Origin: a virus
Length of the DNA stretch: 41,169 nucleotides
Direction: 5' to 3' (one strand)
IMG/VR virus record: IMGVR_UViG_3300031418_000040
The position numbers were made by a program, and so were the translations under genes. Shown piece by piece: positions 8,703-31,937 of this stretch (the first letter of the stretch is position 1; every line of letters begins with the position of its first letter). The notes beneath the pieces are model-generated. The model had not been told where the DNA came from and did not search any database. It saw only the letters and a program-made list of their open reading frames with translations.

Positions 8703-11207
8703 TTACCTCTTGTAAAGCAGGCCGCCGGGCGACATTTGCATGCGTGCCCAATCATTGATGGTTTTTTTCATCATGCCTTCCAGCTGCTTGGCTGCATCCG
8801 TTGTATTTGCCGTGCTGGTTTCCCCTGCACCGCCACCCTCGATTGTGATCGGAACACTAACTGAAATGCTCGGGCCACTACTGGAACTGCGGTTAATGGC
8901 GGGAGTGGGATTGCTTCCGGTGCGCATTGATCCTACTAGACCACCGCTGGCATAGCCGCGCATCATGTCGTAAAGGTTTTCCACGCCAATTCGCTCAGTG
9001 GCTTCTTTGGTGAAGACAAATTCCCCTTTATGCACAATGCCTGCCGGGTCGAATTTGCCCCCCTGCCCGGTGTAGCCGCCTCCATCGAATACGCCAGCAT
9101 AAGCCTGATAGCCGGTGCTCATGCCTAACGCCCCGGTAGAACCGGCCCCAGCAGCTGCTCCGCCCGCCGCCGCACCTCCTGCTGCACCGCCCACGGAGCT
9201 CGCGAACCCACTGATAAGATTCACAGCGGCCATCTGAAGACCGATTTTCACAATCATCGACAGGACTGAGGTCATCCAGTCCTTCCAGCTGGCTTTGTTG
9301 CCGATCAGCATGTCCGCGACATTATCCAGGGCGCTGCCCAGGCCATTGCTTACTGCGCTGGCTGCTGATGCAGAGTAGTTAGATGATTCATCCAGCCAGT
9401 TGGCCAGGCCATCACTCATACCGCTCATCCAGTCTGACTGCATCACATCAACGCTTTTGTAATAGTCTTCCTGAATACTCAGTCGTTCGCCCATAGCGCT
9501 CTTAAGCGCGCTGGTTTCAGTGTCGTAGAGGGATTGAGTGATTTTCCCTGACTGGTAAGAAAGCTGAAGCTGGCGCTGCTGTTCCAGAAAGCTGCGTTCA
9601 ATGCCCAGCCGTTCCTTCATTCTGTCGCGCTCTTTGTCACCAAGTCCGGCCCCCTGAGCGTCAACGCTGAGGTCTTCGCGGGCGTTCTGATTATCGGCTC
9701 TGAGGTTGGCGGTAAACTCAGCCACTTTCGCCATCTCAATGTTGGCCTGTTTAACTGCGTTCAGGCGGTCAACCTCAGCAGCCAGCCCTGCCAGCCGGGA
9801 TTTCTGTGCTTCGTTAATGCCTGCCAGCCTCCCGTCAGCAATATCGAACTGCAGCTTCTGGGCCTCGGTCACTTCGACCGTCTTTTTACCCGTGGTATCA
9901 ATCAGGGCAATCTGTCGCTGATAGCTCAGCTCAAGAGACTTAAAAGCGTTATCAAGTTTTTTTGCAGCAGCGTCAGGCTTGGTAGTGGTTTTTCCGTTTG
10001 TGCCTCCTGCCGGGAGACTGAAGTCCATCAGGCTATCGGCGGTGCCAGTCCCCACAGAATCAGCAATCTTTATCGGCTTCTGCTTGCTTAATTTATCGCG
10101 CTGCTGATAAAGCGTGTCCAACTCAGCGTTCACGGCTTTGATGCTGTCATCCTTGCCTGTGATCCATCCGAACATCGACTGACCTGAGCCATACATATCG
10201 TTTGAACGAGTCGTCTGGTTCTTCTCCAGCCAGTTAATGCGCTCCTGCACCTGGCTCGGGTTGTTCATGTCAATATTGCCGCCCAGCGCAGACATACGGG
10301 CATTTGAGTTCGTGGCAAGTTTACCAGCGCCGGCTGCAGCTTTAACGAGCCACCCTGCAAGCTGAGCAACCTGGCTTACCAGCTCGACGATGCCCTGCAA
10401 TACGGCGGGGTCGGTGAGAACTTTTCGTACTTCATCCAGTGAAGACTGAAGCGGGGAAAGGTCCACCTTTGCCAGTCCGCCAGCAATCTCCATTTTCAGG
10501 CCTTTAACCTGCGCTTCCATATCGAGGAAGATGTCGTTGACCTTCACCAGGTCATCGATAGACGCCGGATCGGGCGCTACACCGTAATCTTTCGCGATAC
10601 GGATAAACTTTTGCAGCTTTTCATTGTTGTTATCGAACAGCGGCAGCAGTTTTGACAGGTCGTTACCGAGGCTTTCAAGGATGGTTACCTTTCCCGCGTT
10701 GGTGCTGATTTTCCCCAGTGCTTCCCCGATCGCCAGCATCTGCTTGTCGGGAGATACCTTCGACAGTTTGTCAGCAGACAGGCCAAGAGCATTCAGCGCG
10801 TCAACGGCCTCGCCTGACTTGTTCAGTACCGCGTCACCGATTTTGTCGCTGAGGTCTTTGAAGATGTCAGCCATGTTATCGCCAGCCACGCCAGCACGAT
10901 CGGCGGCGAACTGCCAGGCCAGCAACTCCTGGGTCGACATCTTCAGTGACTTAGCCCACTGGTCCGTGGATGCAATCTGCTGTGAGGTAGATTTAAGAAG
11001 ATTGAAGCCAGCAACGCCTACGGCGGAAGCGGTAGCAGCAGCAGCTGCACCTATCCCCGCCAGCGCGACAGAGGTCTTCTGTGCATCCTCCTGAACCTGC
11101 TTACCCCATTTCGCTGACGCTCTTTCCGCCTTGTCCATGCCGGAGACAAAACCGCCAACTTTTGCGACCAAATCTAGAGTTAATGTTCCGAGAGATTTAC
11201 TTGCCAT
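8703..11207 (-). CDS. H: Tail tape measure protein
   Basis: 834 aa, Ala/Gly-rich and coiled-coil-like. It lies downstream of G/GT. Confidence 0.9.
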   Translation of the reverse strand: MASKSLGTLTLDLVAKVGGFVSGMDKAERASAKWGKQVQEDAQKTSVALAGIGAAAAATASAVGVAGFNLLKSTSQQIASTDQWAKSLKMSTQELLAWQFAADRAGVAGDNMADIFKDLSDKIGDAVLNKSGEAVDALNALGLSADKLSKVSPDKQMLAIGEALGKISTNAGKVTILESLGNDLSKLLPLFDNNNEKLQKFIRIAKDYGVAPDPASIDDLVKVNDIFLDMEAQVKGLKMEIAGGLAKVDLSPLQSSLDEVRKVLTDPAVLQGIVELVSQVAQLAGWLVKAAAGAGKLATNSNARMSALGGNIDMNNPSQVQERINWLEKNQTTRSNDMYGSGQSMFGWITGKDDSIKAVNAELDTLYQQRDKLSKQKPIKIADSVGTGTADSLMDFSLPAGGTNGKTTTKPDAAAKKLDNAFKSLELSYQRQIALIDTTGKKTVEVTEAQKLQFDIADGRLAGINEAQKSRLAGLAAEVDRLNAVKQANIEMAKVAEFTANLRADNQNAREDLSVDAQGAGLGDKERDRMKERLGIERSFLEQQRQLQLSYQSGKITQSLYDTETSALKSAMGERLSIQEDYYKSVDVMQSDWMSGMSDGLANWLDESSNYSASAASAVSNGLGSALDNVADMLIGNKASWKDWMTSVLSMIVKIGLQMAAVNLISGFASSVGGAAGGAAAGGAAAGAGSTGALGMSTGYQAYAGVFDGGGYTGQGGKFDPAGIVHKGEFVFTKEATERIGVENLYDMMRGYASGGLVGSMRTGSNPTPAINRSSSSGPSISVSVPITIEGGGAGETSTANTTDAAKQLEGMMKKTINDWARMQMSPGGLLYKR

Positions 11208-21358: not shown

Positions 21359-21598
21359 TCAGGCTAACCGCCGGGCTCTTCTGCGTTCGTTACGTGGTTC
21401 ATTGTCCGGGTGCTTTTCTACAGTTACGCCGTCAGCATGATCCACAAGGGAGTAGCACGGATAGATGACCTTGCGGCCAAGAGCATCGCCAACGGCATAG
21501 TCAGCGGCTTTCGTGCTGTTCCAGTTCTTCAGGATTGTGCTGATACCGCTTTGTGGTGGGCTATACCGGAAATGATGCTCAAGCGCTTTATCAAGCAC
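21359..21598 (-). CDS. Hypothetical protein (79 aa)
   Basis: ORF with backbone-like GC upstream of HNH. No motif recognised. Confidence 0.45.
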   Translation of the reverse strand: MLDKALEHHFRYSPPQSGISTILKNWNSTKAADYAVGDALGRKVIYPCYSLVDHADGVTVEKHPDNEPRNERRRARRLA

Positions 21599-21979
21599 CG
21601 CCTGCCTGTTACGGTGGTGAGCGCAATTCCGATATTAGAGCGTTATTGTGCTGCAGGTGCATATGCAACATCGTTAATCACAACTTCCATACATACATTA
21701 ATGGTCATTTAGATTTTCCTGCTGGATAGGCAAGTAAATGCCCCGGTATTGATGAAACCACCAGCCTATGATTCGATGTGCTTGTGCTGAAAAGTGAACT
21801 CAGTTTTTGCGGTTTTCAGTACAAAATAAAGACCAGAGGACATAACCAATACAATAGATACACAGAATTCCCTGTGCATCGTTCTATCAACGTTGTGGAG
21901 GGTGTTTATAAGCGGATTTAAATTGCTATAACTTATACGCCAGTTGTCACAATTCTCGTTGACCTGGTCTACTTCTGTA

Positions 21980-22183
21980 TCAACTCGAAGACTCAGGCAT
22001 GTAATCCATCTTGAGCACATCATTAGGCGCCAAGTATACCCATACGCCATCTTCTTTAAGAATACTGACGAATCCATTAACCAATTCAGCCTGACGTAGG
22101 ACATCTAGCCCGTGAAGGTTTAGCCTGTTTGATTGGTTAGCGTGATTTAGTAGAAATCGGACATGGACAATATATTTATACAC
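21980..22183 (-). CDS. Possible small protein in the AT-rich island (up to 67 aa, start uncertain)
   Basis: The translation is protein-like (..GLDVLRQAELVNGFVSILKEDGVWVYLAPNDVLKMDY..), but the GTG start abuts the AGGAG with no spacing. The true start is unclear. Confidence 0.3.
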   Translation of the reverse strand: MYKYIVHVRFLLNHANQSNRLNLHGLDVLRQAELVNGFVSILKEDGVWVYLAPNDVLKMDYMPESSS

Positions 22184-22251
22184 TCCTTCGAAAAAGAAAC
22201 GAATTATTCGCAGTAAGGGATAATTCGCATATAACAGAAGTTTGGATAAAG

Positions 22252-23073
22252 TTATTGAGCCACATCAACAAATTCAAGTCCTGCGGATATCTCCCGTAGC
22301 AATAAAAGCCCTCTATCAGTTATTTTTAGATCAACAATGATAGGGTCATAACGTTCATAATGGCTTAGCGAGGCTATTAACCCATTATTTGGAATTGCTT
22401 GGTTTATAGCATTTTTAGCGTTAAGGTCTCCACCAGAAAGACACTCCAGACCAGAATTTAGCAATATCATCATGAGCGTATGCATTTTTGAAGGCTGCAA
22501 ATTCTTCCGACTCGAAAAATCTTCAATGTATCTAATTAGTGTGTCACCGTTTTTTGCTTGTAATCTCCAGTGGTTAATCCCAAACTCCTTACCATTAGAA
22601 ACTGCGTAAACAACGATGTTTTCCAAAAGTTTCAGAAATCCTCGTGAAAATTTAATCTCTCCGCCTACAAACTTCATGCCATATTGTTCATTTATACCAT
22701 CATCAAATACATATTTATTTTCATCCTGAAGGCCTGACTCGTGAGCATCAACGCATCTAAACATTTCATAAATTATTAATTCAGGTTGTTTTTCTTGATT
22801 AATTATATTAGGCAATTCGCCCTCATAATAAATATTTTCAGGCAAAGAATCTGGCCCTAAGAACATTTGTCTAATTCGAACCCCTGTGAAACGGGTATAC
22901 CTTTCTTTATTACCCATATTCTCCTTGGGATTTTTTAATGACTTAGTCCCTTCAGGATAAACTTTCCTTGAGGAGCCATCAACCGCAGAAACCAAGAGGC
23001 AAAGAGCAGCTTCGAACCTTCCGCCATCCATGTTATAATGTGCATCATCAATTCTTTTTGAAATATTACCCAC
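22252..23073 (-). CDS. AT-rich island protein of unknown function (273 aa) with one Rx4H (HEPN-like) motif
   Basis: GTG start with GGGAGG 4 nt upstream. EMFRCVDAHESG contains R-x4-H. No other family is recognisable. Confidence 0.7.
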   Translation of the reverse strand: MGNISKRIDDAHYNMDGGRFEAALCLLVSAVDGSSRKVYPEGTKSLKNPKENMGNKERYTRFTGVRIRQMFLGPDSLPENIYYEGELPNIINQEKQPELIIYEMFRCVDAHESGLQDENKYVFDDGINEQYGMKFVGGEIKFSRGFLKLLENIVVYAVSNGKEFGINHWRLQAKNGDTLIRYIEDFSSRKNLQPSKMHTLMMILLNSGLECLSGGDLNAKNAINQAIPNNGLIASLSHYERYDPIIVDLKITDRGLLLLREISAGLEFVDVAQ

Positions 23074-23161
23074 AACGCCTCCCAGATAAAGATCGTGTAT
23101 TTTCCAATTTTTCTACCGTGATCAACTTAAAGATAGCACATTTCTTTCTGGATGAGTGAAA

Positions 23162-23398
23162 ATGAAAAAAGGAATAGCATCAGAAACTGGAACATTACCT
23201 TCTACTCTGAGTTTCAAAGTACCCCTGCAGGTAGCAGTTCTGCTTCACCACTGTCAATATTCACTCTTTGAGGGTGAAATAATCACGTTCAGCGGATTAA
23301 GTAAGCAAGTAGCTGATAGCATCAGCATGCCTCGTAGTTCCGTTACTAACCTCATCCATAATTTCCTACTTAAAAGTCAGAGAAACCAGATTATTTGA
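23162..23398 (+). CDS. Small putative winged-helix/HTH protein divergent from the 273-aa gene
   Basis: ITFSGLSKQVADSISMPRSSVTNLIHNF looks like a helix-turn-helix. I prefer the ATG at 23162 over the GTG at 23156. Confidence 0.5.
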   Translation: MKKGIASETGTLPSTLSFKVPLQVAVLLHHCQYSLFEGEIITFSGLSKQVADSISMPRSSVTNLIHNFLLKSQRNQII

Positions 23399-23611
23399 CG
23401 AAAGCTGCTGTAATCTTCAGGCCATCGAGTTCAGGTCAGCGCCTTGGCAACTCAGACCATGTGTCTGATGTTTATGTCAAAAAAAATTTGAATTTACATT
23501 CATGGCTTTAGCTAAGGAATATAGTAAGGACTATATCGAAAGTTCCACACCTAGAACTTAATCGCCAGCATCATCAGGCCCACTCGCAAATGGGCCTTGT
23601 GATGCTTGCTG

Positions 23612-24837: not shown

Positions 24838-25086
24838 TCACTCCTTATTGAAGTTAAGTGCTGCTGCATACCCTTTCGTTTCGAGCGCCCGCTTTAAAGC
24901 TTTGTGGTCTCGCCATTTGAAAAAGGCTGTCACCACTAAACCCAGAGCAGCGATAACCAGACCGCCTATGATGCCAATGGCGCTCCATTCGTCAGGGCTG
25001 TAACGAGTAAGGATGCTGTTGGCAACCGTCCCCGCTGATGCGCCGTATACGACGCCACTGGCTACTTTGCTCATATCGATACTCAT
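24838..25086 (-). CDS. Holin
   Basis: I prefer the start MSIDMSK (GGAGGT 5 nt upstream). 82 aa with two TM segments and a charged C-terminus, immediately upstream of the endolysin. Confidence 0.8.
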   Translation of the reverse strand: MSIDMSKVASGVVYGASAGTVANSILTRYSPDEWSAIGIIGGLVIAALGLVVTAFFKWRDHKALKRALETKGYAAALNFNKE

Positions 25087-25134
25087 GCTCACCTCCGGCT
25101 GCGCCGTGGTGCTGTGTGTGAGGAATAAAGGGAT

Positions 25135-25162
25135 AAAAAAAGCCCCGGCTGGTGCCGAGGCT
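25135..25162 (-). terminator. Rho-independent terminator just upstream of the holin (tR'-like, minus strand)
   Basis: AGCCTCGGcaccagCCGGGGCT followed by TTTTTTT on the minus strand. The position is equivalent to lambda tR'. Confidence 0.7.
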
Positions 25163-25282
25163 GGAATCTTATGATGTAAGCGTTGTGTCGAAGTGACCAC
25201 TCTTATCACGTTACAATATCGATTGCGTACGCATAACCATTTACGTATTCTCTAGAAATAAAAAAACTCATAAGGGAATTTA

Positions 25283-26371
25283 ATGATGTCAGGAATCAAT
25301 TTTTCTTTTGAAGGCTTGACTATACAAAGAATCATTGCTCATAGGATTTTTCCTCGTGCTAATGATAAAACTATGACTCCTGCCAAACTCAGTCAGCAGC
25401 TGTTGGCATTTGATCAAGATGCGCTTGACGTATTGCAAATGAGGATTACTGAAGCCTTAGCTGCAAAATCTCATGGGATTGAGATGTCAATCAATGCAAC
25501 AGTGGCTGATAGTTTTTTGAATCTTTCCGCTTCTACGATGCATTCAGACGATGCTACGTTCATCCAAGTAAGTAAAAGATTTGCAAACAAACTTACCGAA
25601 GCTCAGCAAGGGAGCGGTGCGCCTGGTGGTATTCTAACGGTAATGTCTGGATCAGTAGGTGAAGGCCAACTCCCATTCGTATGTGTTATAAAAGCAGAAA
25701 CTCAATCAGGATTTAGAACGACAGAGAATGCTATACAGCTTTCCATGGAATACATTTCAGAGTTACTACTTACTCCAACGCAAAAATTTTATAAAGTTGG
25801 TTTCGTTATTGAAAAATCCCTCACACAAGCAGATGGTGCAGGGAATTATAACCCTGAGCTATTCCGAGCATTCCTTTTTGACCATTTAATGTCTTCAACT
25901 GATACAAAGAAAGCAGCAGCTTACTTCTACAATAAGTTTCTAGGCATGGATATAAATAAGTCATCAAAAAAACTCACTCAGGATTTTTATGAAAATACTT
26001 GTTTATTTATAAACAATTCAGGCATCACTGAGGAGAAAAAACTAGATTTACATGAAGCTTTAAGGTCAGAGCTTAGGTCAAACAAAGCAACAATCAACAT
26101 AACGACATTTGCCAGCGAAAGCATACCCGAAGACATTCGGGAAAGTTATACAAGCATGATGGCTTCTAAGCAACTCCCCACCATATCTTTCAATAAAGAC
26201 ATTGAATTTATTTCCAGCAAGCTAAAAAGAAGAAATAAATTAGTGTTCACAAATGACATATGGATATCAGTTCCTCCAGATGAACTAAAAACGTTGGTTG
26301 AAATACTTCCAAATACTGAAAATGATAGTACAATATTAAAGATAAATGGTAAGCTTTCGAGGCAAGAGTGA
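25283..26371 (+). CDS. NdpA/YejK-like (NA37 nucleoid-associated protein family) protein
   Basis: 362 aa. IQRIIAHRI near the N-terminus, F..VSKRFANKLTEAQQGSGAPGGILTV and YFYNKFLGMD parallel YejK features (IALHQLI, FSRAATGRLRDEL...GGIVLF, FMDFLGA). AT-rich. The stop overlaps the next start (ATGA). Confidence 0.6.
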   Translation: MMSGINFSFEGLTIQRIIAHRIFPRANDKTMTPAKLSQQLLAFDQDALDVLQMRITEALAAKSHGIEMSINATVADSFLNLSASTMHSDDATFIQVSKRFANKLTEAQQGSGAPGGILTVMSGSVGEGQLPFVCVIKAETQSGFRTTENAIQLSMEYISELLLTPTQKFYKVGFVIEKSLTQADGAGNYNPELFRAFLFDHLMSSTDTKKAAAYFYNKFLGMDINKSSKKLTQDFYENTCLFINNSGITEEKKLDLHEALRSELRSNKATINITTFASESIPEDIRESYTSMMASKQLPTISFNKDIEFISSKLKRRNKLVFTNDIWISVPPDELKTLVEILPNTENDSTILKINGKLSRQE

Positions 26372-27363
26372 TGGAACTTAATGAATTTCACAGGTATTTA
26401 TTAGATAACCACCCTATGCATGCAGCATGGGGTGATGTTGTTTCCTCTGAAATTCAAAAGGCTGTTATGGCAGCAACCGATAGAAAACATCTTAAGGGAT
26501 TTCTGAAAGTTCCTGTTGAACCACGAGTTAAAGATATAAAGTCTGCGATTGGAAAAGTTGCCAGGAAAGGTTACGAAAACCCTGTAATACAGATGACAGA
26601 TTTAGTAGGGACACGATTCGTTGTACTTCTATCTTCTGATATTGATATTGTTTGTAGTGCTTTAGAATCAATATCAGAATTTTCTTCAGTTGTTTCAAAA
26701 GACTATCTATCTGACATCGAAACAAACCCTAAGATATTTGATTATCAATCTAAGCATTACGAAGTAAGACCTAAAGAAGAATTTACTGTTAACAACATTA
26801 CCATAACAACAGAAGCCTGCTGTGAGGTGCAAATTAGGACATTGTTACAGCATGCTTATGCAGAGCTAGTACATGATAACATTTACAAGCCTGTTGGTGT
26901 GGTTCCTAAAGCAGCTGAACGGCATATCGCCCGCAGTATGGCGCTCATGGAAACCACAGATGACCTTTTTTGCTCAACAATGGAATTACTTTACGAAACA
27001 AATAAAGGAAGAAATGAGTTCTTATTTTCATTAGTGGAATTGTACAAAGCTTGCATTGGTGAAGAACATGTTCATTTGGATGATGCAACAAACTTTCACA
27101 TCCTAGATGAATACAAGAACTTCATTAATGAGGAAACTTTCAATAAAGTGGAAGAGCTAATCAAAAAAAAGAAATTTTTACCATCAAGAATTCGCAATCG
27201 CTCTTCGGAAAACTCTCTTTTCGGACAACCATCAGTATTGTTTTTATATCACCTAGTAAGCACATTAGATAGCGACCAAATCACTAAGCTTTGGCCGCTC
27301 CCTGGATACTTAAAAGACCTTAACTTAGTATTCAGTGATCTAGGTGTAAATACCAGCCTATAA
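26368..27363 (+). CDS. RelA/SpoT-domain nucleotide pyrophosphokinase (small alarmone synthetase / toxSAS-like) with a ~130-aa helical C-terminal extension
   Basis: RSH synthetase motifs appear in order: RVKDIKSAIGKVARKG, DLVGTRFVV, DYQSKHYEV, EVQIRTLLQHAYAELVHDNIYK. Confidence 0.85.
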   Translation: MMELNEFHRYLLDNHPMHAAWGDVVSSEIQKAVMAATDRKHLKGFLKVPVEPRVKDIKSAIGKVARKGYENPVIQMTDLVGTRFVVLLSSDIDIVCSALESISEFSSVVSKDYLSDIETNPKIFDYQSKHYEVRPKEEFTVNNITITTEACCEVQIRTLLQHAYAELVHDNIYKPVGVVPKAAERHIARSMALMETTDDLFCSTMELLYETNKGRNEFLFSLVELYKACIGEEHVHLDDATNFHILDEYKNFINEETFNKVEELIKKKKFLPSRIRNRSSENSLFGQPSVLFLYHLVSTLDSDQITKLWPLPGYLKDLNLVFSDLGVNTSL

Positions 27364-27372
27364 TATTATAGG
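27357..27372. repeat. Perfect 16-bp palindrome CCTATAATATTATAGG spanning both convergent stop codons
   Basis: Contains TATAAT on both strands, the TAA of the RelA/SpoT gene (27361..27363) and the TAA of Q (27366..27368). Confidence 0.9.
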
Positions 27373-27734
27373 CAATCTATTTCTAATTTAACTTCCAGCA
27401 TGCAAAGCACACCTCCAATGAAACCTTCAGCCGTCTGTATCTCTTTTCTGATTGTGCCATCTGAACAATGTCGACGGCGGGCGATAGTTCTTAGTGAGAT
27501 GTTGTAGCGATAGTGGGCCACTACCAGATCGTACTCTTCCGGCTTAAATTTCTTTAGCTTCGCTATACAGCTGTCGATGATGATGCCATCGTGATCTGTC
27601 AGTGATGGCCGCTGATTTGAATCAGCTGGCAGCAAACCTTTAAACCCGGCTGCTATTGATGAATAGTCAACGCCAGCACCTTCTGACGCGGCCCAACCTC
27701 CCCAGCACTCCAGGATGTATTTCATATCACGCAT
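27366..27734 (-). CDS. Q: Late antiterminator Q (phage 82/21-type)
   Basis: MRDMKYILECWGGWAA...YSSIAAGFKGLL...CSDGTIRKEIQTAEGFIGGVL matches my recollection of the 82-type Q family. ATG with GGAGA 5 nt upstream. Confidence 0.85.
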   Translation of the reverse strand: MRDMKYILECWGGWAASEGAGVDYSSIAAGFKGLLPADSNQRPSLTDHDGIIIDSCIAKLKKFKPEEYDLVVAHYRYNISLRTIARRRHCSDGTIRKEIQTAEGFIGGVLCMLEVKLEIDCL

Positions 27735-29674: not shown

Positions 29675-30031
29675 TTATCGATGAAATTCATTGATCGTTA
29701 ACTCTGCTTTACCGTGACATGTCACATCACCCCACTCCACCACCATGCGCTTGATCTGAATATCATCAGCCCACACGCCAGCGTGGGTCACAGCGTCAAA
29801 CAGCGCCTTCTGGAAGTTGTCTAAATCGCGTTTAGCGCGGTTCGGCGGGTAGAGGACGACGTGGATATCAATGTCATGAGTGATCGCCTGTGGGCGGCGG
29901 CGGAGTTGCTCATAAACGGCAGCTATCGCATTGATGCGGTATTTGCGGCCACGCTCACTGATCAGCGTACCGCGAGAGGTAGAGCGCCAGTATCCGTTAA
30001 CACTGGGTGGAAATGGCAGGATCAGTTTCAT
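29675..30031 (-). CDS. rusA: Holliday junction resolvase RusA
   Basis: 118 aa, MKLILPFPPSVNGYW....KRDLDNF.K...D, typical of RusA. Confidence 0.85.
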   Translation of the reverse strand: MKLILPFPPSVNGYWRSTSRGTLISERGRKYRINAIAAVYEQLRRRPQAITHDIDIHVVLYPPNRAKRDLDNFQKALFDAVTHAGVWADDIQIKRMVVEWGDVTCHGKAELTINEFHR

Positions 30032-30654
30032 GCAACCCTACCCGGCAGCATCTGCACGCTGCTGTCGCACTCATTGCCCCATATGCCCCAGCCCTCTGAC
30101 GGACGGCGGGCGAACAGCTCTATGCGCGGAACATCGCCATAAAGCTGCTCCAGACGAAATCTGGCTTCTGCCGGCTTAGTGCTGTGCTCACCCTGGCAGG
30201 AGTAAATCACCTGTTTAACGGAGCGACTGGCCCGCTCCAGCCCCGTTCCCCGGACAGCCACCAGCGCAGATTCCTGATTGCCGCGCGTGTAATTGCCGGG
30301 GTTCATCCGTGTTTCAGCGTTCAGCATTTCCAGCAAGTCGGAAAAGTCGTGGATCGTCTGCTGTTCAAGAGCGGCGTTGAATCGCTGCTCTGCCCTGCCG
30401 TTGAACTTCACCCATGTGAACAGGAACATCTGGCGAACGTCAAAGCCCCACGCCTCAGCGACAGCTCTGGCCTCTTCAACATGGGTTCCGGTGTACCACA
30501 TCACCAAGACTGAGTTGTCCGCAGAAAGCTCCCATACGGGGAGCCTCTTGATTTCTGCAAGTGTCATCGTGCTGTAGTGATCGCTGGCTGCACCGTTGCT
30601 GATGGTGTTGCCATATGACCAGGGAGGATCAGCGTAAATCAGTCCGTACTTCAT
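30028..30654 (-). CDS. MT-A70 family DNA N6-adenine methyltransferase
   Basis: YGLIYADPPWSY motif. I prefer the ATG at 30654, immediately after the ParB-like stop. Confidence 0.85.
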   Translation of the reverse strand: MKYGLIYADPPWSYGNTISNGAASDHYSTMTLAEIKRLPVWELSADNSVLVMWYTGTHVEEARAVAEAWGFDVRQMFLFTWVKFNGRAEQRFNAALEQQTIHDFSDLLEMLNAETRMNPGNYTRGNQESALVAVRGTGLERASRSVKQVIYSCQGEHSTKPAEARFRLEQLYGDVPRIELFARRPSEGWGIWGNECDSSVQMLPGRVA

Positions 30655-31937
30655 CCGGCCACCTCTGATGATAACTCTTTGATGGCTGACTTTATTGCGG
30701 CGCGTAACTCTCTGACATTTCCCCATGTAGAACTCAGCGTGAGATTCAGCAAGCTCAGAAAATCTGACGCTGTTGGGGCGAAGTTGCGGTTTTCTTCGTA
30801 CACCTGACTGAAGCGCTGGAACATGTCTTCCCGTATCGCTTCATCAGCGTAATGCTTATCAACAAATGCCTGCAGTTCGTCAGTTGACGAATACGCGGCC
30901 ACCAGCTCAACGGCCTTGCGGATTGTGTCAGCGGGGACAACAACAAACTCTGGTTGCTCAAGTGAGTCCGACGCCCAGCTGTGCGCGTACTTCGATTCGC
31001 TGAATGTGAACTCTGCTTTGTCACCGAACGCGGCCGCAGCACATGCCCAGGCCTCAACACCGCTCTGGCTGATGATGTCTTCTTTCAGGAATGGCAGTTT
31101 GGTTTCCAGCGTTTTACCCTCTGTGCTCGCCTGTGCCGGCACGCCATGTTTTTCACGGTACTCGTTCAGAATGCCCATCGCTTCCAGATAGATTTCATCC
31201 GACGCTTTGTACCCGTCATCGCTGAATTCAAACGCGGCCATAAGCTCAACCAGGCGGCGGGCTTTAAGTGCGCTGAACTGTGGGATGGCGGCGGCTTTGG
31301 TCAGTTTCTTTTTGCCAGCGGCTTTGGCTTCGGCCATCTTCTCTTCAGCTACTGCGCCAGCTTTAGTGCCGTGTTCGCGGGATAATGACACTGCTGTTGT
31401 TGCCGCAACTTCCCCCGAACGGACCATACCGATCAGCGTATCGCCTACTTCAAGTAACTGGAGGTGATGCTCAATGTCGGCCACAGAACGTTTTACTTTT
31501 TTCGCAATTTCGGCTTCGGTCCAGCCCTGATTCATCAGGCGCTGATATGCACCTGCACGCTCCAACGGCAGCAGTGATCGTCCTTGGGAACTGGTGACCA
31601 TCAGTGCAATGCGATCAGCTTCTGTGCCTTTGGCGTCTTTGCATTCCAGACGAGCCACTTCAGTGCCTGCTTCAGTCGCAAGCAATGCACCGTAGTAACG
31701 ATGGTGGCCGTCGATGATTTTTAAGCCCTGCTCTGTGACCTGAACCACCAGCGCCGGGACTTCTTCACCAAGAATGAAAGCATCACGGAACTCTTCAACA
31801 TGCGCCTGATCGATGTCGCGAACGTTATAGCCGGGTTCTACATAGAACTCTTTCAGCCCTGCGAAGTAGGTTTTGCGTGGGACGATATCGGTTGCAGATT
31901 CATCGCGGTTTTTGTGTACTACTGAAAGTGAAGTCAT
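30651..31937 (-). CDS. ParB/Srx N-terminal domain protein
   Basis: The KIIDGHHRYYGALLA motif plus a downstream HTH-like region (WTEAEIAKKVKRSVADIEHHL). Confidence 0.75.
   Translation of the reverse strand: MTSLSVVHKNRDESATDIVPRKTYFAGLKEFYVEPGYNVRDIDQAHVEEFRDAFILGEEVPALVVQVTEQGLKIIDGHHRYYGALLATEAGTEVARLECKDAKGTEADRIALMVTSSQGRSLLPLERAGAYQRLMNQGWTEAEIAKKVKRSVADIEHHLQLLEVGDTLIGMVRSGEVAATTAVSLSREHGTKAGAVAEEKMAEAKAAGKKKLTKAAAIPQFSALKARRLVELMAAFEFSDDGYKASDEIYLEAMGILNEYREKHGVPAQASTEGKTLETKLPFLKEDIISQSGVEAWACAAAAFGDKAEFTFSESKYAHSWASDSLEQPEFVVVPADTIRKAVELVAAYSSTDELQAFVDKHYADEAIREDMFQRFSQVYEENRNFAPTASDFLSLLNLTLSSTWGNVRELRAAIKSAIKELSSEVAG

Follow-up and report, generated by a model that had tools for sequence, protein, structure and literature searches.

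A two-gene cassette carried by a complete lambdoid prophage (IMG/VR record IMGVR_UViG_3300031418_000040; the whole stretch of 41,169 nucleotides that was analysed is called the window below) is most probably a prophage-carried abortive-infection system of the type I PANGU kind, a reading to which we give a probability of about 0.8. The first gene encodes a nucleoid-associated protein (NAP) of the NA37/YejK family, and the second a small alarmone synthetase. Operons combining an NA37 gene and a GRel toxSAS gene were defined in April 2026 as type I PANGU, made up of the NAP Pag1A and the synthetase Pag1B (bioRxiv 10.64898/2026.04.06.716658), and another YejK-domain defence system, DS-1, has been validated by DefensePredictor (PMC13092281). 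The pairing, presented as novel in an earlier note made from the sequence alone, is thus not new: it has already been named, and the window pair is most probably a prophage-borne member of type I PANGU. The guess of that note that the cassette is a defence module is supported by the defence reported for homologous type I systems in the same preprint.

The cassette lies on the plus strand between the genes for the Q antiterminator and the holin, the latter being followed on the minus strand by lysozyme and Rz-like genes (Table 1). It is AT-rich, with a GC content of 0.36–0.38 across positions 25501–27500 against about 0.51–0.55 on either side. These values, together with the assignment of its neighbours to PF06530 and PF04971, bore out the earlier description of an AT-rich cassette placed between Q and the lysis genes on the opposite strand; both open reading frames were also as described, and every motif quoted for them was present in the translations. 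The location had been called a moron slot. It stood as a prophage cargo position and could be refined: the cassette is found between Q and a terminator-like hairpin and, by analogy with the pR'/tR' region of lambda, would be upstream of the late-promoter region and outside the late transcript.

The NAP and synthetase genes are encoded in this order on the same strand and overlap by 1 to 4 nt, which can be compared with the distance of <40 bp used as the operon criterion for PANGU. Their junction reads GAG TGA TGG, so that the overlap is GTGA for a GTG start of the synthetase or TGATG for an ATG start, and not the ATGA given previously. Public gene calls take the ATG and a 330-aa synthetase, and our holin call likewise agrees with the public annotation.

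Table 1. Features of the cassette and its flanks, in window coordinates.
Feature	Position	Strand	Details
Holin, first lysis gene	24838..25086	-	PF04971, E = 1.1e-15
Divergent intergenic region, holin start to NAP start	25087..25282		196 bp
Terminator-like hairpin	25141..25162	-	9 bp, 7 GC, then TTTTTTT; 55 nt ahead of the holin ATG
Pag1A-like nucleoid-associated protein, NA37/YejK family	25283..26371	+	362 aa, 40.4 kDa
Pag1B/GRel-like small alarmone synthetase	26371..27363	+	330 aa from ATG 26371 (331 aa from GTG 26368), 37.8 kDa
Perfect palindrome GCCTATAATATTATAGGC	27356..27373		Covers both stop codons where the synthetase and Q genes converge
Q antiterminator	27366..27734	-	PF06530, E = 7e-46; convergent with the cassette, 2 nt between stop codons

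The divergent region between the holin and NAP starts should carry two predicted elements, the cassette's own promoter on the plus strand and the phage late-promoter region on the minus strand. A Shine–Dalgarno sequence (AAGGGA) was found ahead of the NAP ATG; a sigma-70 scan of the region gave no consensus match of at least 9/12 and no cassette promoter. By analogy with lambda, the hairpin within this region may be a terminator of the tR' type, on which the antitermination by Q would act. At the other end of the cassette, the palindrome is AT-rich and weakly terminator-like, and may be an element at which transcription stops or pauses in both directions. No Rfam family or tRNA was detected on scanning the window. 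When the cassette was compared by Megablast with 50,697 phage records and 5,426 complete E. coli genomes, no match came up, and a protein-level search of the same 50,697 phage records returned partial SYNTH-domain matches only; the sequenced phage isolates among these records therefore appear to be without the pair, as neither the nucleotide nor the protein search gave a full match.

Analysis of the first gene product confirmed its proposed relation to the NA37/YejK family, with a match to Pfam NA37 over residues 18–333 (E = 8.8e-15; 55.3 bits against a cutoff of 24.6) and another to phrog_1974 (E = 3e-69). In its AlphaFold2 model (pLDDT 85), the only significant fold match in the PDB was E. 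coli YejK (9BE2), with E = 4.3e-10 over 351 columns. The model thus identifies the NAP as a divergent protein of the YejK/NA37 fold. Several basic residues were conserved in the family, K209, K229/K230 and the 313–319 cluster among them. Although it shares its overall fold with the housekeeping YejK/NdpA of E. coli, the NAP is only 16% identical to 9BE2 and had no match among the NCBIfam profiles; moreover, YejK is a stand-alone chromosomal gene, whereas the NAP gene forms an operon with an effector in an AT-rich prophage cassette. An identity with the housekeeping protein was consequently discarded.

The second gene product showed RelA_SpoT as its sole Pfam domain (residues 53–174; E = 4.2e-16; 59.7 bits against a cutoff of 27), with no hydrolase domain detected in this search, in agreement with the earlier call of a synthetase-only RSH enzyme. 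It also matched phrog_32462 (E = 9e-125) and, below threshold, the NCBIfam YjbM profile. Its AlphaFold2 model (pLDDT 87.5) presented an N-terminal helix, a SYNTH domain at about residues 50–175, a long helix at 180–228 and a helical C-terminal domain at 238–323, so that the helical tail noticed before corresponds to modelled helices spanning residues 180–323. The catalytic motif residues R52, K54, D77, Y125, E152, Q154 and R156 were invariant across the family, the G-loop tyrosine Y125 (in FDYQSKH) being kept in all 72 members compared, and the active site is predicted from these residues to be intact. The C-terminal domain, taken on its own, was homologous in 72/72 members and had no Foldseek match. 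As judged from its amino acid composition, the region 201–330 has a net charge of -5 (family median -1), with an acidic stretch at about residues 181–255 and a basic patch at about 256–285.

The closest relatives of the synthetase by fold were RelQ and RelP (SAS1/SAS2), which synthesise (p)ppGpp and likewise assemble as homotetramers, with Foldseek E ~ 2e-8 and a TM score of up to 0.79 on the target; they were also the top sequence matches for residues ~50–196. These enzymes, however, are without the 49-residue helix, the C-terminal domain of ~100 aa and the NAP partner. The match to CapRel (7ZTB) was weaker, with E = 4e-5, a TM score of about 0.44 and an rmsd above 10 Å. Regarding the possibility, considered at the outset, that the pair matches a named defence family, the literature answered positively with type I PANGU; PADLOC v2.0.0, in turn, only offered the candidate PDC-S33, with a partial match to the synthetase (residues 44–166 on profile positions 62–176, 43 bits). 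Membership in PDC-S33 was rejected, as the match is confined to the SYNTH domain of a 349-position profile.

The functional properties of type I PANGU have been reported for systems of F. futtsuensis, P. aeruginosa and E. coli in one source, a preprint that precedes peer review (bioRxiv 10.64898/2026.04.06.716658). According to it, phage-driven degradation of the genome frees the chromosome-bound NAP, the phage DNA itself not being recognised, and the freed NAP binds the C-terminal domain of the synthetase, converting an inactive tetramer into a 2:1 complex that makes pppGpp and aborts the infection. A complex solved by cryo-EM has been published as PDB 9UFP. Pag1B consists of an N-terminal toxSYNTH domain, an alpha-helical linker and a C-terminal NAP-binding (DMK) domain with an acidic, DNA-mimicking surface, and the replacement Y129A of the G-loop tyrosine in the F. 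futtsuensis protein abolishes defence. The systems tested protected only against T4 or Bas34, T1 and T5 being resistant to the two systems examined.

On the following features, examined in silico, the window pair matches type I PANGU. The NAP satisfies the published search criteria (NA37/NdpA, IPR007358; HMM E < 1e-10; length of at least 300 aa) with its E value of 8.8e-15, its near-full-length match and its 362 aa. As in the published operons, an NA37/YejK-fold gene is upstream of a synthetase-only RSH gene and overlaps it, the sizes of the proteins are close (40.4 and 37.8 kDa, compared with 40.6 and 37.5 kDa for those of P. aeruginosa), the synthetase has the same succession of SYNTH domain, helical linker and C-terminal domain, and the catalytic tyrosine is kept (Y125, equivalent to Y129). 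Beyond the window, obligate pairing, co-evolution of the two genes, a SLATT gene in a subset of the loci and a spread over more than five phyla are also common to both. In addition, an E. coli NA37-linked synthetase was 53% identical to that of the window, gapless over 330 aa, and the PANGU-Ec system of the preprint was put together from "NA37 and gRel" of E. coli; through this homologue the window synthetase appears to be indirectly linked to a tested system.

The F. futtsuensis pair was sought among the fetched loci by means of its published residues, which gave partial matches, and the best two, L062 and L067, were used as proxies. The window enzyme is ~30–33% identical to them. L062 has K200, R203 and K204 at the published numbering of the DNA-contact residues of F. 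futtsuensis, and the corresponding positions of the window NAP are T206, K209 and K210, two of the three thus being basic. There were also differences. Several published interface residues were changed in the window pair according to this proxy mapping, among them R258 to E254 and R306 to D300, and the C-terminal domain is only modestly acidic by sequence. Finally, the window copy is carried by a lambdoid prophage in convergent orientation to Q, whereas prophages are not mentioned in the preprint.

The earlier note had seen in the overlapping genes an architecture of the toxin–antitoxin type. In a classical type II module, toxicity of the synthetase would be constitutive, and the NA37 protein would counter it as an antitoxin, through binding or through repression of the operon. 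The tight overlapping operon and the co-evolution of the two genes are in line with this, and all five of the toxSAS subfamilies that Jimmy et al. 2020 (PMC7229694) validated were TA toxins with adjacent antitoxins. In the homologous NA37–GRel pairs, however, neither the synthetase nor the NAP was toxic alone, nor were both together, the synthetase by itself was not inhibitory either, both genes were needed for defence, and the NAP was an activator, required in vitro for the activity of the synthetase (bioRxiv 10.64898/2026.04.06.716658). It was a DNA-binding-defective NAP that turned the pair toxic, and a full-length, 362-aa partner of the YejK fold is atypical of antitoxins. We consider a type II module very improbable, and the antitoxin role suggested previously conflicts with what was found for the homologues, where the NAP activates. 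The alternative role given then to the NAP, that of a sensor of invading DNA, does not correspond to the reported cue either, which is the loss of the intact host chromosome that frees the NAP. By analogy with these systems, we propose that the window NAP is a chromosome-bound sensor and activator.

A second alternative keeps this sensing of genome damage through NAP release and changes the output, which would be pyrophosphorylation of tRNA 3' ends, as by CapRel, FaRel2 or PhRel, or synthesis of (pp)pApp. The acceptor substrate is known to vary among toxSAS enzymes, and the identity of the window enzyme to the proxies of the biochemically characterised F. futtsuensis system is low. Nevertheless, its fold is nearer to the pppGpp-making RelQ and RelP than to CapRel, the active-site motifs, G-loop tyrosine included, are invariant throughout the family and also in the subgroup resembling the F. 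futtsuensis enzyme, and no labelling of tRNA by Pag1A/Pag1B was found in the preprint (bioRxiv 10.64898/2026.04.06.716658). An altered output is thus improbable.

The co-occurrence of the two genes, proposed at the outset as something to survey, was borne out in a set of 80 loci from species-representative genomes, retrieved by means of the synthetase. In 74 of them the NA37 gene immediately preceded the synthetase gene on its strand, the remaining six being cut by contig ends (3) or apparently degraded or rearranged (3), and an intact adjacent pair was present in 71/80. Pairwise distances of the NAP and of the synthetase were strongly correlated (r = 0.90; Mantel, 0/999 permutations; 72 pairs), and NAP–effector co-evolution is also shown in Extended Data Fig. 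11 of the preprint. The two genes are translationally coupled, and in several phyla they have been inherited together and have evolved as a single unit. In a subset of the loci, extra genes encoding proteins of ~118–180 aa with two transmembrane segments flank the pair; five of the six sampled matched SLATT_1/4/5 and DUF4231 (E from 4e-6 to 3e-3), two of the DUF4231 matches being above the Pfam cutoff. Some type I operons are likewise reported to carry an extra SLATT gene (bioRxiv 10.64898/2026.04.06.716658). No SLATT-like accessory gene was present at the window locus.

The arrangement convergent with Q recurred in prophages of Erwinia, Enterobacter, Serratia, Kosakonia and Klebsiella, and other clades of the pair sat in P2-like prophages, in the slot delimited by ogr and gpD. 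Outside prophages, the pair was found beside DarT/NADAR in Pseudomonas, on plasmids and in several phyla without phage context. The prophage slots and the DarT/NADAR neighbour speak for a defence system of the PANGU kind, and the settings also bear on a third alternative, a module of lysogenic conversion or regulation in which the NAP would remodel or silence DNA of the host or the prophage and the synthetase would tune host physiology or the lysis–lysogeny decision through (p)ppGpp. In its favour, the latter is a global regulator, and the cassette adjoins Q and the late-promoter region. Against it, the pair moves between unrelated types of prophages (lambdoid and P2-like), as portable defence cargo does, it also occurs in the non-phage contexts just listed, and its homologues defend against phages (bioRxiv 10.64898/2026.04.06.716658). 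We hold such a module to be highly unlikely.

Under the preferred reading, that of a type I PANGU-like system, the NAP dimer of a lysogen would be bound to intact chromosomal DNA and the synthetase would be kept as an inactive homotetramer, as in its homologues (bioRxiv 10.64898/2026.04.06.716658). If a lytic phage of the kind that breaks down the host genome, such as a T4-like phage, superinfected the lysogen, the NAP would be freed and would join the C-terminal domain of the synthetase in a 2:1 complex. By the same homology, this complex would transfer pyrophosphate from ATP to GTP, GDP or GMP, and the resulting (pp)pGpp and NTP depletion would halt transcription and translation, aborting the infection. 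The cassette is probably transcribed from its own promoter in lysogeny, because it is on the opposite strand and outside the predicted late transcript, and it would guard the lysogen and thereby the prophage. Lambdoid phages are not known to degrade the host chromosome; therefore, the induction of the prophage itself should not trigger the system.

The newly described class of immunity, in which a nucleoid protein reports the loss of an intact chromosome to an alarmone synthetase, thus also rides as prophage cargo. Two slots recur, one following Q in lambdoid prophages and the other separating ogr from gpD in P2-like ones, which is consistent with temperate phages equipping their hosts to resist lytic rivals. 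Since both the pairing and its biochemistry and trigger are already described (bioRxiv 10.64898/2026.04.06.716658), no new question is opened by the window pair, and the addition made here is modest: the placement of its clade in lambdoid prophages, in convergence with Q, and that of other clades in the ogr–gpD slot of P2-like prophages. The prophage copies are natural and compact versions for testing under their native promoter. A further reading of the position, which we regard as rather unlikely, is that the Enterobacterales lineage of the system has become a specialised cargo of lambdoid prophages, with a fixed place that converges on Q, ahead of the late promoter and terminator, and that this place is itself regulatory. 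Transcription of the cassette in lysogeny and read-through into Q upon induction would then oppose each other across the palindrome. Defence would be on in the lysogen and down in the lytic phase, or transcription of the cassette would dampen Q and stabilise lysogeny. If true, this would be a built-in switch between host protection and prophage release, a possibility not considered in the preprint.

Among the other known systems, CapRel SJ46, a fused toxSAS TA from a Salmonella prophage, shares with the window pair the SYNTH fold and the condition of a prophage-borne toxSAS causing abortive infection. It is, however, one protein chain, held in an auto-inhibited state by its C-terminal domain, and it senses a phage capsid protein and pyrophosphorylates tRNA, whereas the window enzyme would need, by homology, a separate NAP. 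Its fused-antitoxin architecture is unmatched in the window, where the C-terminal domain does not superpose on CapRel, and membership in the CapRel type was discarded on both architecture and fold. DS-1 comprises a 391-aa, Zn-ribbon-bearing NA37 protein of E. coli and a 404-aa hypothetical protein (PMC13092281), and was excluded as the same system because this partner is not an RSH enzyme. Still, both DS-1 and type II PANGU (Pag2A and a transmembrane effector) have, like the window pair, a YejK/NA37 protein as one half of a two-gene operon, in these two cases of validated anti-phage activity; the effector that is transmembrane in type II PANGU is a soluble alarmone synthetase in the window.

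Analysis of the window revealed both open reading frames named in the earlier note on the plus strand, with all its quoted motifs in their translations. The Pfam search that it had proposed matched NA37 in the 362-aa nucleoid-associated protein (NAP; residues 18-333, E = 8.8e-15, bit score 55 with the cutoff at 24.6) and RelA_SpoT in the synthetase (residues 53-174, E = 4.2e-16), in which no hydrolase domain was found. As had also been described, the cassette is AT-rich (GC 0.36-0.38 versus about 0.51-0.55 in the flanks) and opposite in strand to Q and the lysis genes. The overlap previously read as ATGA was not recovered: the junction, GAG TGA TGG, gives either GTGA, for a GTG start, or TGATG, for the ATG start chosen by public gene calls (330 aa).

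Features of the cassette and the surrounding prophage (window coordinates)
Feature	Position	Strand	Remarks
NAP ORF	25283..26371	+	362 aa; 40.4 kDa; Pfam NA37
Synthetase ORF	26368..27363	+	331 aa from GTG; 37.8 kDa; Pfam RelA_SpoT
Antiterminator Q	27366..27734	-	PF06530, E = 7e-46
P21-type holin	24838..25086	-	followed by lysozyme and Rz-like gene
Terminator-like hairpin	25162..25141	-	strong, GC-rich, with TTTTTTT; 55 nt upstream of holin start codon
Palindrome	27356-27373		GCCTATAATATTATAGGC; perfect, 18 nt; covers synthetase and Q stop codons
273-aa ORF	22252..23073	-	PF27329 (Rv1289) in the public collection's precomputed annotation
Orphan MT-A70-type DNA methyltransferase	30028-30726	-	prophage early region; PADLOC MTase_II, E = 9e-52

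The whole stretch corresponds to a complete lambdoid prophage, with the tail fibre at ~1.2 kb and a CI-like repressor and integrase at ~40 kb. The proposed position of the cassette between Q and the lysis genes was correct, with one probable refinement. The hairpin preceding the holin looks like a lambda tR'-type terminator and would thus place the late promoter between cassette and holin. If the region is organised like lambda pR'/tR', the cassette would lie between Q and the late-promoter region, outside the late transcript. The synthetase and Q genes are convergent, with their stop codons 2 nt apart.

The pairing had been regarded as possibly novel; however, the same gene pair has already been defined as the type I PANGU anti-phage system in a preprint posted on bioRxiv on 6 April 2026, consisting of Pag1A, a YejK-like NAP, and Pag1B, a toxic small alarmone synthetase (toxSAS) of the GRel subfamily (10.64898/2026.04.06.716658). 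The window NAP resembles Pag1A in its NA37 domain, its length and an E-value within the preprint's own limit, and the operon geometry also agrees. The synthetase, like Pag1B, is a synthetase-only RelA/SpoT homologue (RSH) of three-part architecture, with a catalytic tyrosine invariant in the family (Y125, equivalent to Y129 of the F. futtsuensis protein), and the masses are 40.4 and 37.8 kDa, those of the P. aeruginosa PANGU proteins being 40.6 and 37.5 kDa. In Pag1B, an N-terminal toxSYNTH domain and a helical linker precede an acidic "DNA-mimicking" C-terminal domain, and Y129A abolishes defence (10.64898/2026.04.06.716658). The C-terminal domain of the window synthetase carries a net charge of -5 by sequence count, the family median being -1. 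By sequence comparison, the window pair is most probably a new prophage-borne member of this very recently described system, and its synthetase a candidate GRel enzyme. Moreover, its synthetase is 53% identical, without any gap, to an NA37-linked E. coli synthetase found here, through which it would be indirectly connected to the tested PANGU-Ec, constructed from E. coli "NA37 and gRel" (10.64898/2026.04.06.716658).

For residue mapping, the homologous pair at locus L062 was used as a stand-in for the F. futtsuensis pair, because its K200/R203/K204, E278/D282, Y129 and R279 sit at the preprint numbering. Through this proxy, K209/K210, E283/E287, Y125 and R273 were found to be kept in the window, and the equivalents of R258 and R306 were not; such partial conservation would agree with the pair-specific interfaces of the preprint. 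DefensePredictor validated a YejK-domain system of E. coli, DS-1, in which the partner gene encodes a hypothetical protein of 404 aa (PMC13092281). As this partner is not an RSH enzyme, DS-1 was rejected as the same system and considered a relative.

AF2 models built from alignments of 62 and 65 sequences were of high confidence (pLDDT 87.5 for the synthetase and 85.0 for the NAP). The synthetase model comprises an N-terminal helix, an alpha/beta synthetase core (~50-175), a single helix of 49 residues (180-228) and, at the C-terminus, a helical domain (238-323), the last two corresponding to the helical tail already noted; Foldseek found no PDB match for the C-terminal domain. RelQ and RelP, which are (p)ppGpp synthetases, matched the first ~200 residues (E ~ 2e-8, target TM 0.7-0.79), and the tRNA-modifying CapRel matched more poorly (E ~ 4e-5, rmsd above 10 A). 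Both fold and motif conservation disfavour a system of the same sensing logic with a different product, either pyrophosphorylated tRNA or (pp)pApp, which we consider improbable. The sole significant PDB match of the NAP model was E. coli YejK (9BE2, E = 4.3e-10, 351 columns, 16% identity).

In the published system, Pag1B by itself is an inactive tetramer, whose C-terminal domain is bound by the Pag1A dimer with nanomolar affinity to give a 2:1 complex that converts ATP and GTP, GDP or GMP into AMP and (pp)pGpp, with no tRNA labelling. Pag1A binds long DNA non-specifically, a DNA-binding-defective mutant of it makes the pair toxic, and T4 escape mutations in denA (EndoII) block host genome degradation (10.64898/2026.04.06.716658). 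Defence against T4 or Bas34 requires both genes, which upholds, as an interpretation, the defence role suggested in the earlier note. Its proposal of the NAP as an antitoxin is contradicted by the same homologues, non-toxic singly or together (10.64898/2026.04.06.716658), and a classical toxin-antitoxin pair is accordingly very unlikely. The suggested sensor of invading DNA was imprecise as to what is sensed; the cue reported for the homologues is degradation of the host genome.

For the window locus, the parts list and its conservation are established. By analogy with the homologues, in a lysogen the NAP would be kept on the chromosome and the synthetase would be inert; a lytic phage degrading host DNA would free the NAP, leading to (pp)pGpp synthesis, NTP depletion and abortion of the infection. 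The layout suggests that the cassette may be transcribed in lysogeny from its own putative promoter. Induction of the prophage itself should not set off the system, since lambdoid phages spare the host chromosome.

Separate homologue searches with NAP and synthetase gave parallel lists of taxa and contigs. The survey of co-occurrence called for earlier bore out the pairing: of 80 species-representative genome loci fetched by the synthetase alone, 74 had an NA37 gene immediately preceding the synthetase gene in the same orientation, in most cases with a 1-4 nt overlap, and 71 of these held intact adjacent pairs; the six exceptions were cut by contig ends (3) or apparently degraded or rearranged (3). 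Pairwise distances of the two proteins were correlated (r = 0.90, reached by 0/999 Mantel permutations), a co-evolution also seen in type I PANGU, and the C-terminal domain by itself was recognisably homologous in 72/72 family members. Judged from these sequence data, NAP and synthetase are one evolutionary unit. Hosts belonged to Pseudomonadota, Verrucomicrobiota, Bacteroidota, Bacillota, Actinomycetota and Planctomycetota, and a subset of loci carried an extra 2TM gene (~118-180 aa), with SLATT/DUF4231-type matches in 5/6 of those sampled (most slightly below Pfam cutoffs, two DUF4231 matches above). Likewise, some type I operons include a SLATT gene, and type I occurs in >5 phyla (10.64898/2026.04.06.716658).

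The pairs most closely related to that of the window occupy the same slot, convergent with Q, in lambdoid prophages otherwise different from one another, from Erwinia (95% identity), Enterobacter (58-59%), Kosakonia, Serratia (two) and Klebsiella aerogenes. In P2-like prophages of E. coli (L086-L090) and Salmonella (L093-L094), the pair (~8900-11000) is flanked by ogr and gpD, a second recurrent cargo slot. A few copies are on plasmids, and in Pseudomonas lurida (L095, 5021-6227) a DarT/NADAR (DarTG-like) module lies ~700 bp upstream, a defence-island-type neighbourhood. Given these locations, the pair behaves as portable defence cargo; its presence outside prophages also disfavours a non-defence regulatory module, which we hold to be quite implausible. 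A protein-level search of phage records found no pair in sequenced phage isolates. Prophages are not mentioned anywhere in the preprint (10.64898/2026.04.06.716658), and this context is the single addition of our analysis to it.

Several loci seemed to be eroding. In Neisseria gonorrhoeae (L044, 9995-11004), the synthetase homologue is split in two ORFs and the upstream NA37 gene is seemingly intact; a 212-aa synthetase fragment is recorded on at least about 1000 contigs, which suggests a PANGU-like locus that has become a pseudogene and is widespread in the species. In Pigmentiphaga litoralis (L064, 9544-10789) and at L048 (8911-10004), the NAP gene is seemingly truncated, frameshifted or partly fused to the synthetase ORF, and these may be decaying or rearranged copies.

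Elsewhere in the prophage, no restriction gene was detected adjoining the methyltransferase. Finally, a second AT-rich island (21500-23500, GC 0.36-0.43) lies between the lysis and the HNH/terminase genes. Its 273-aa ORF, with no match in the Pfam copy used, PHROGs or PADLOC, is conserved in the same prophage on metagenome contigs L001-L003 and could be another gene of cargo or defence.
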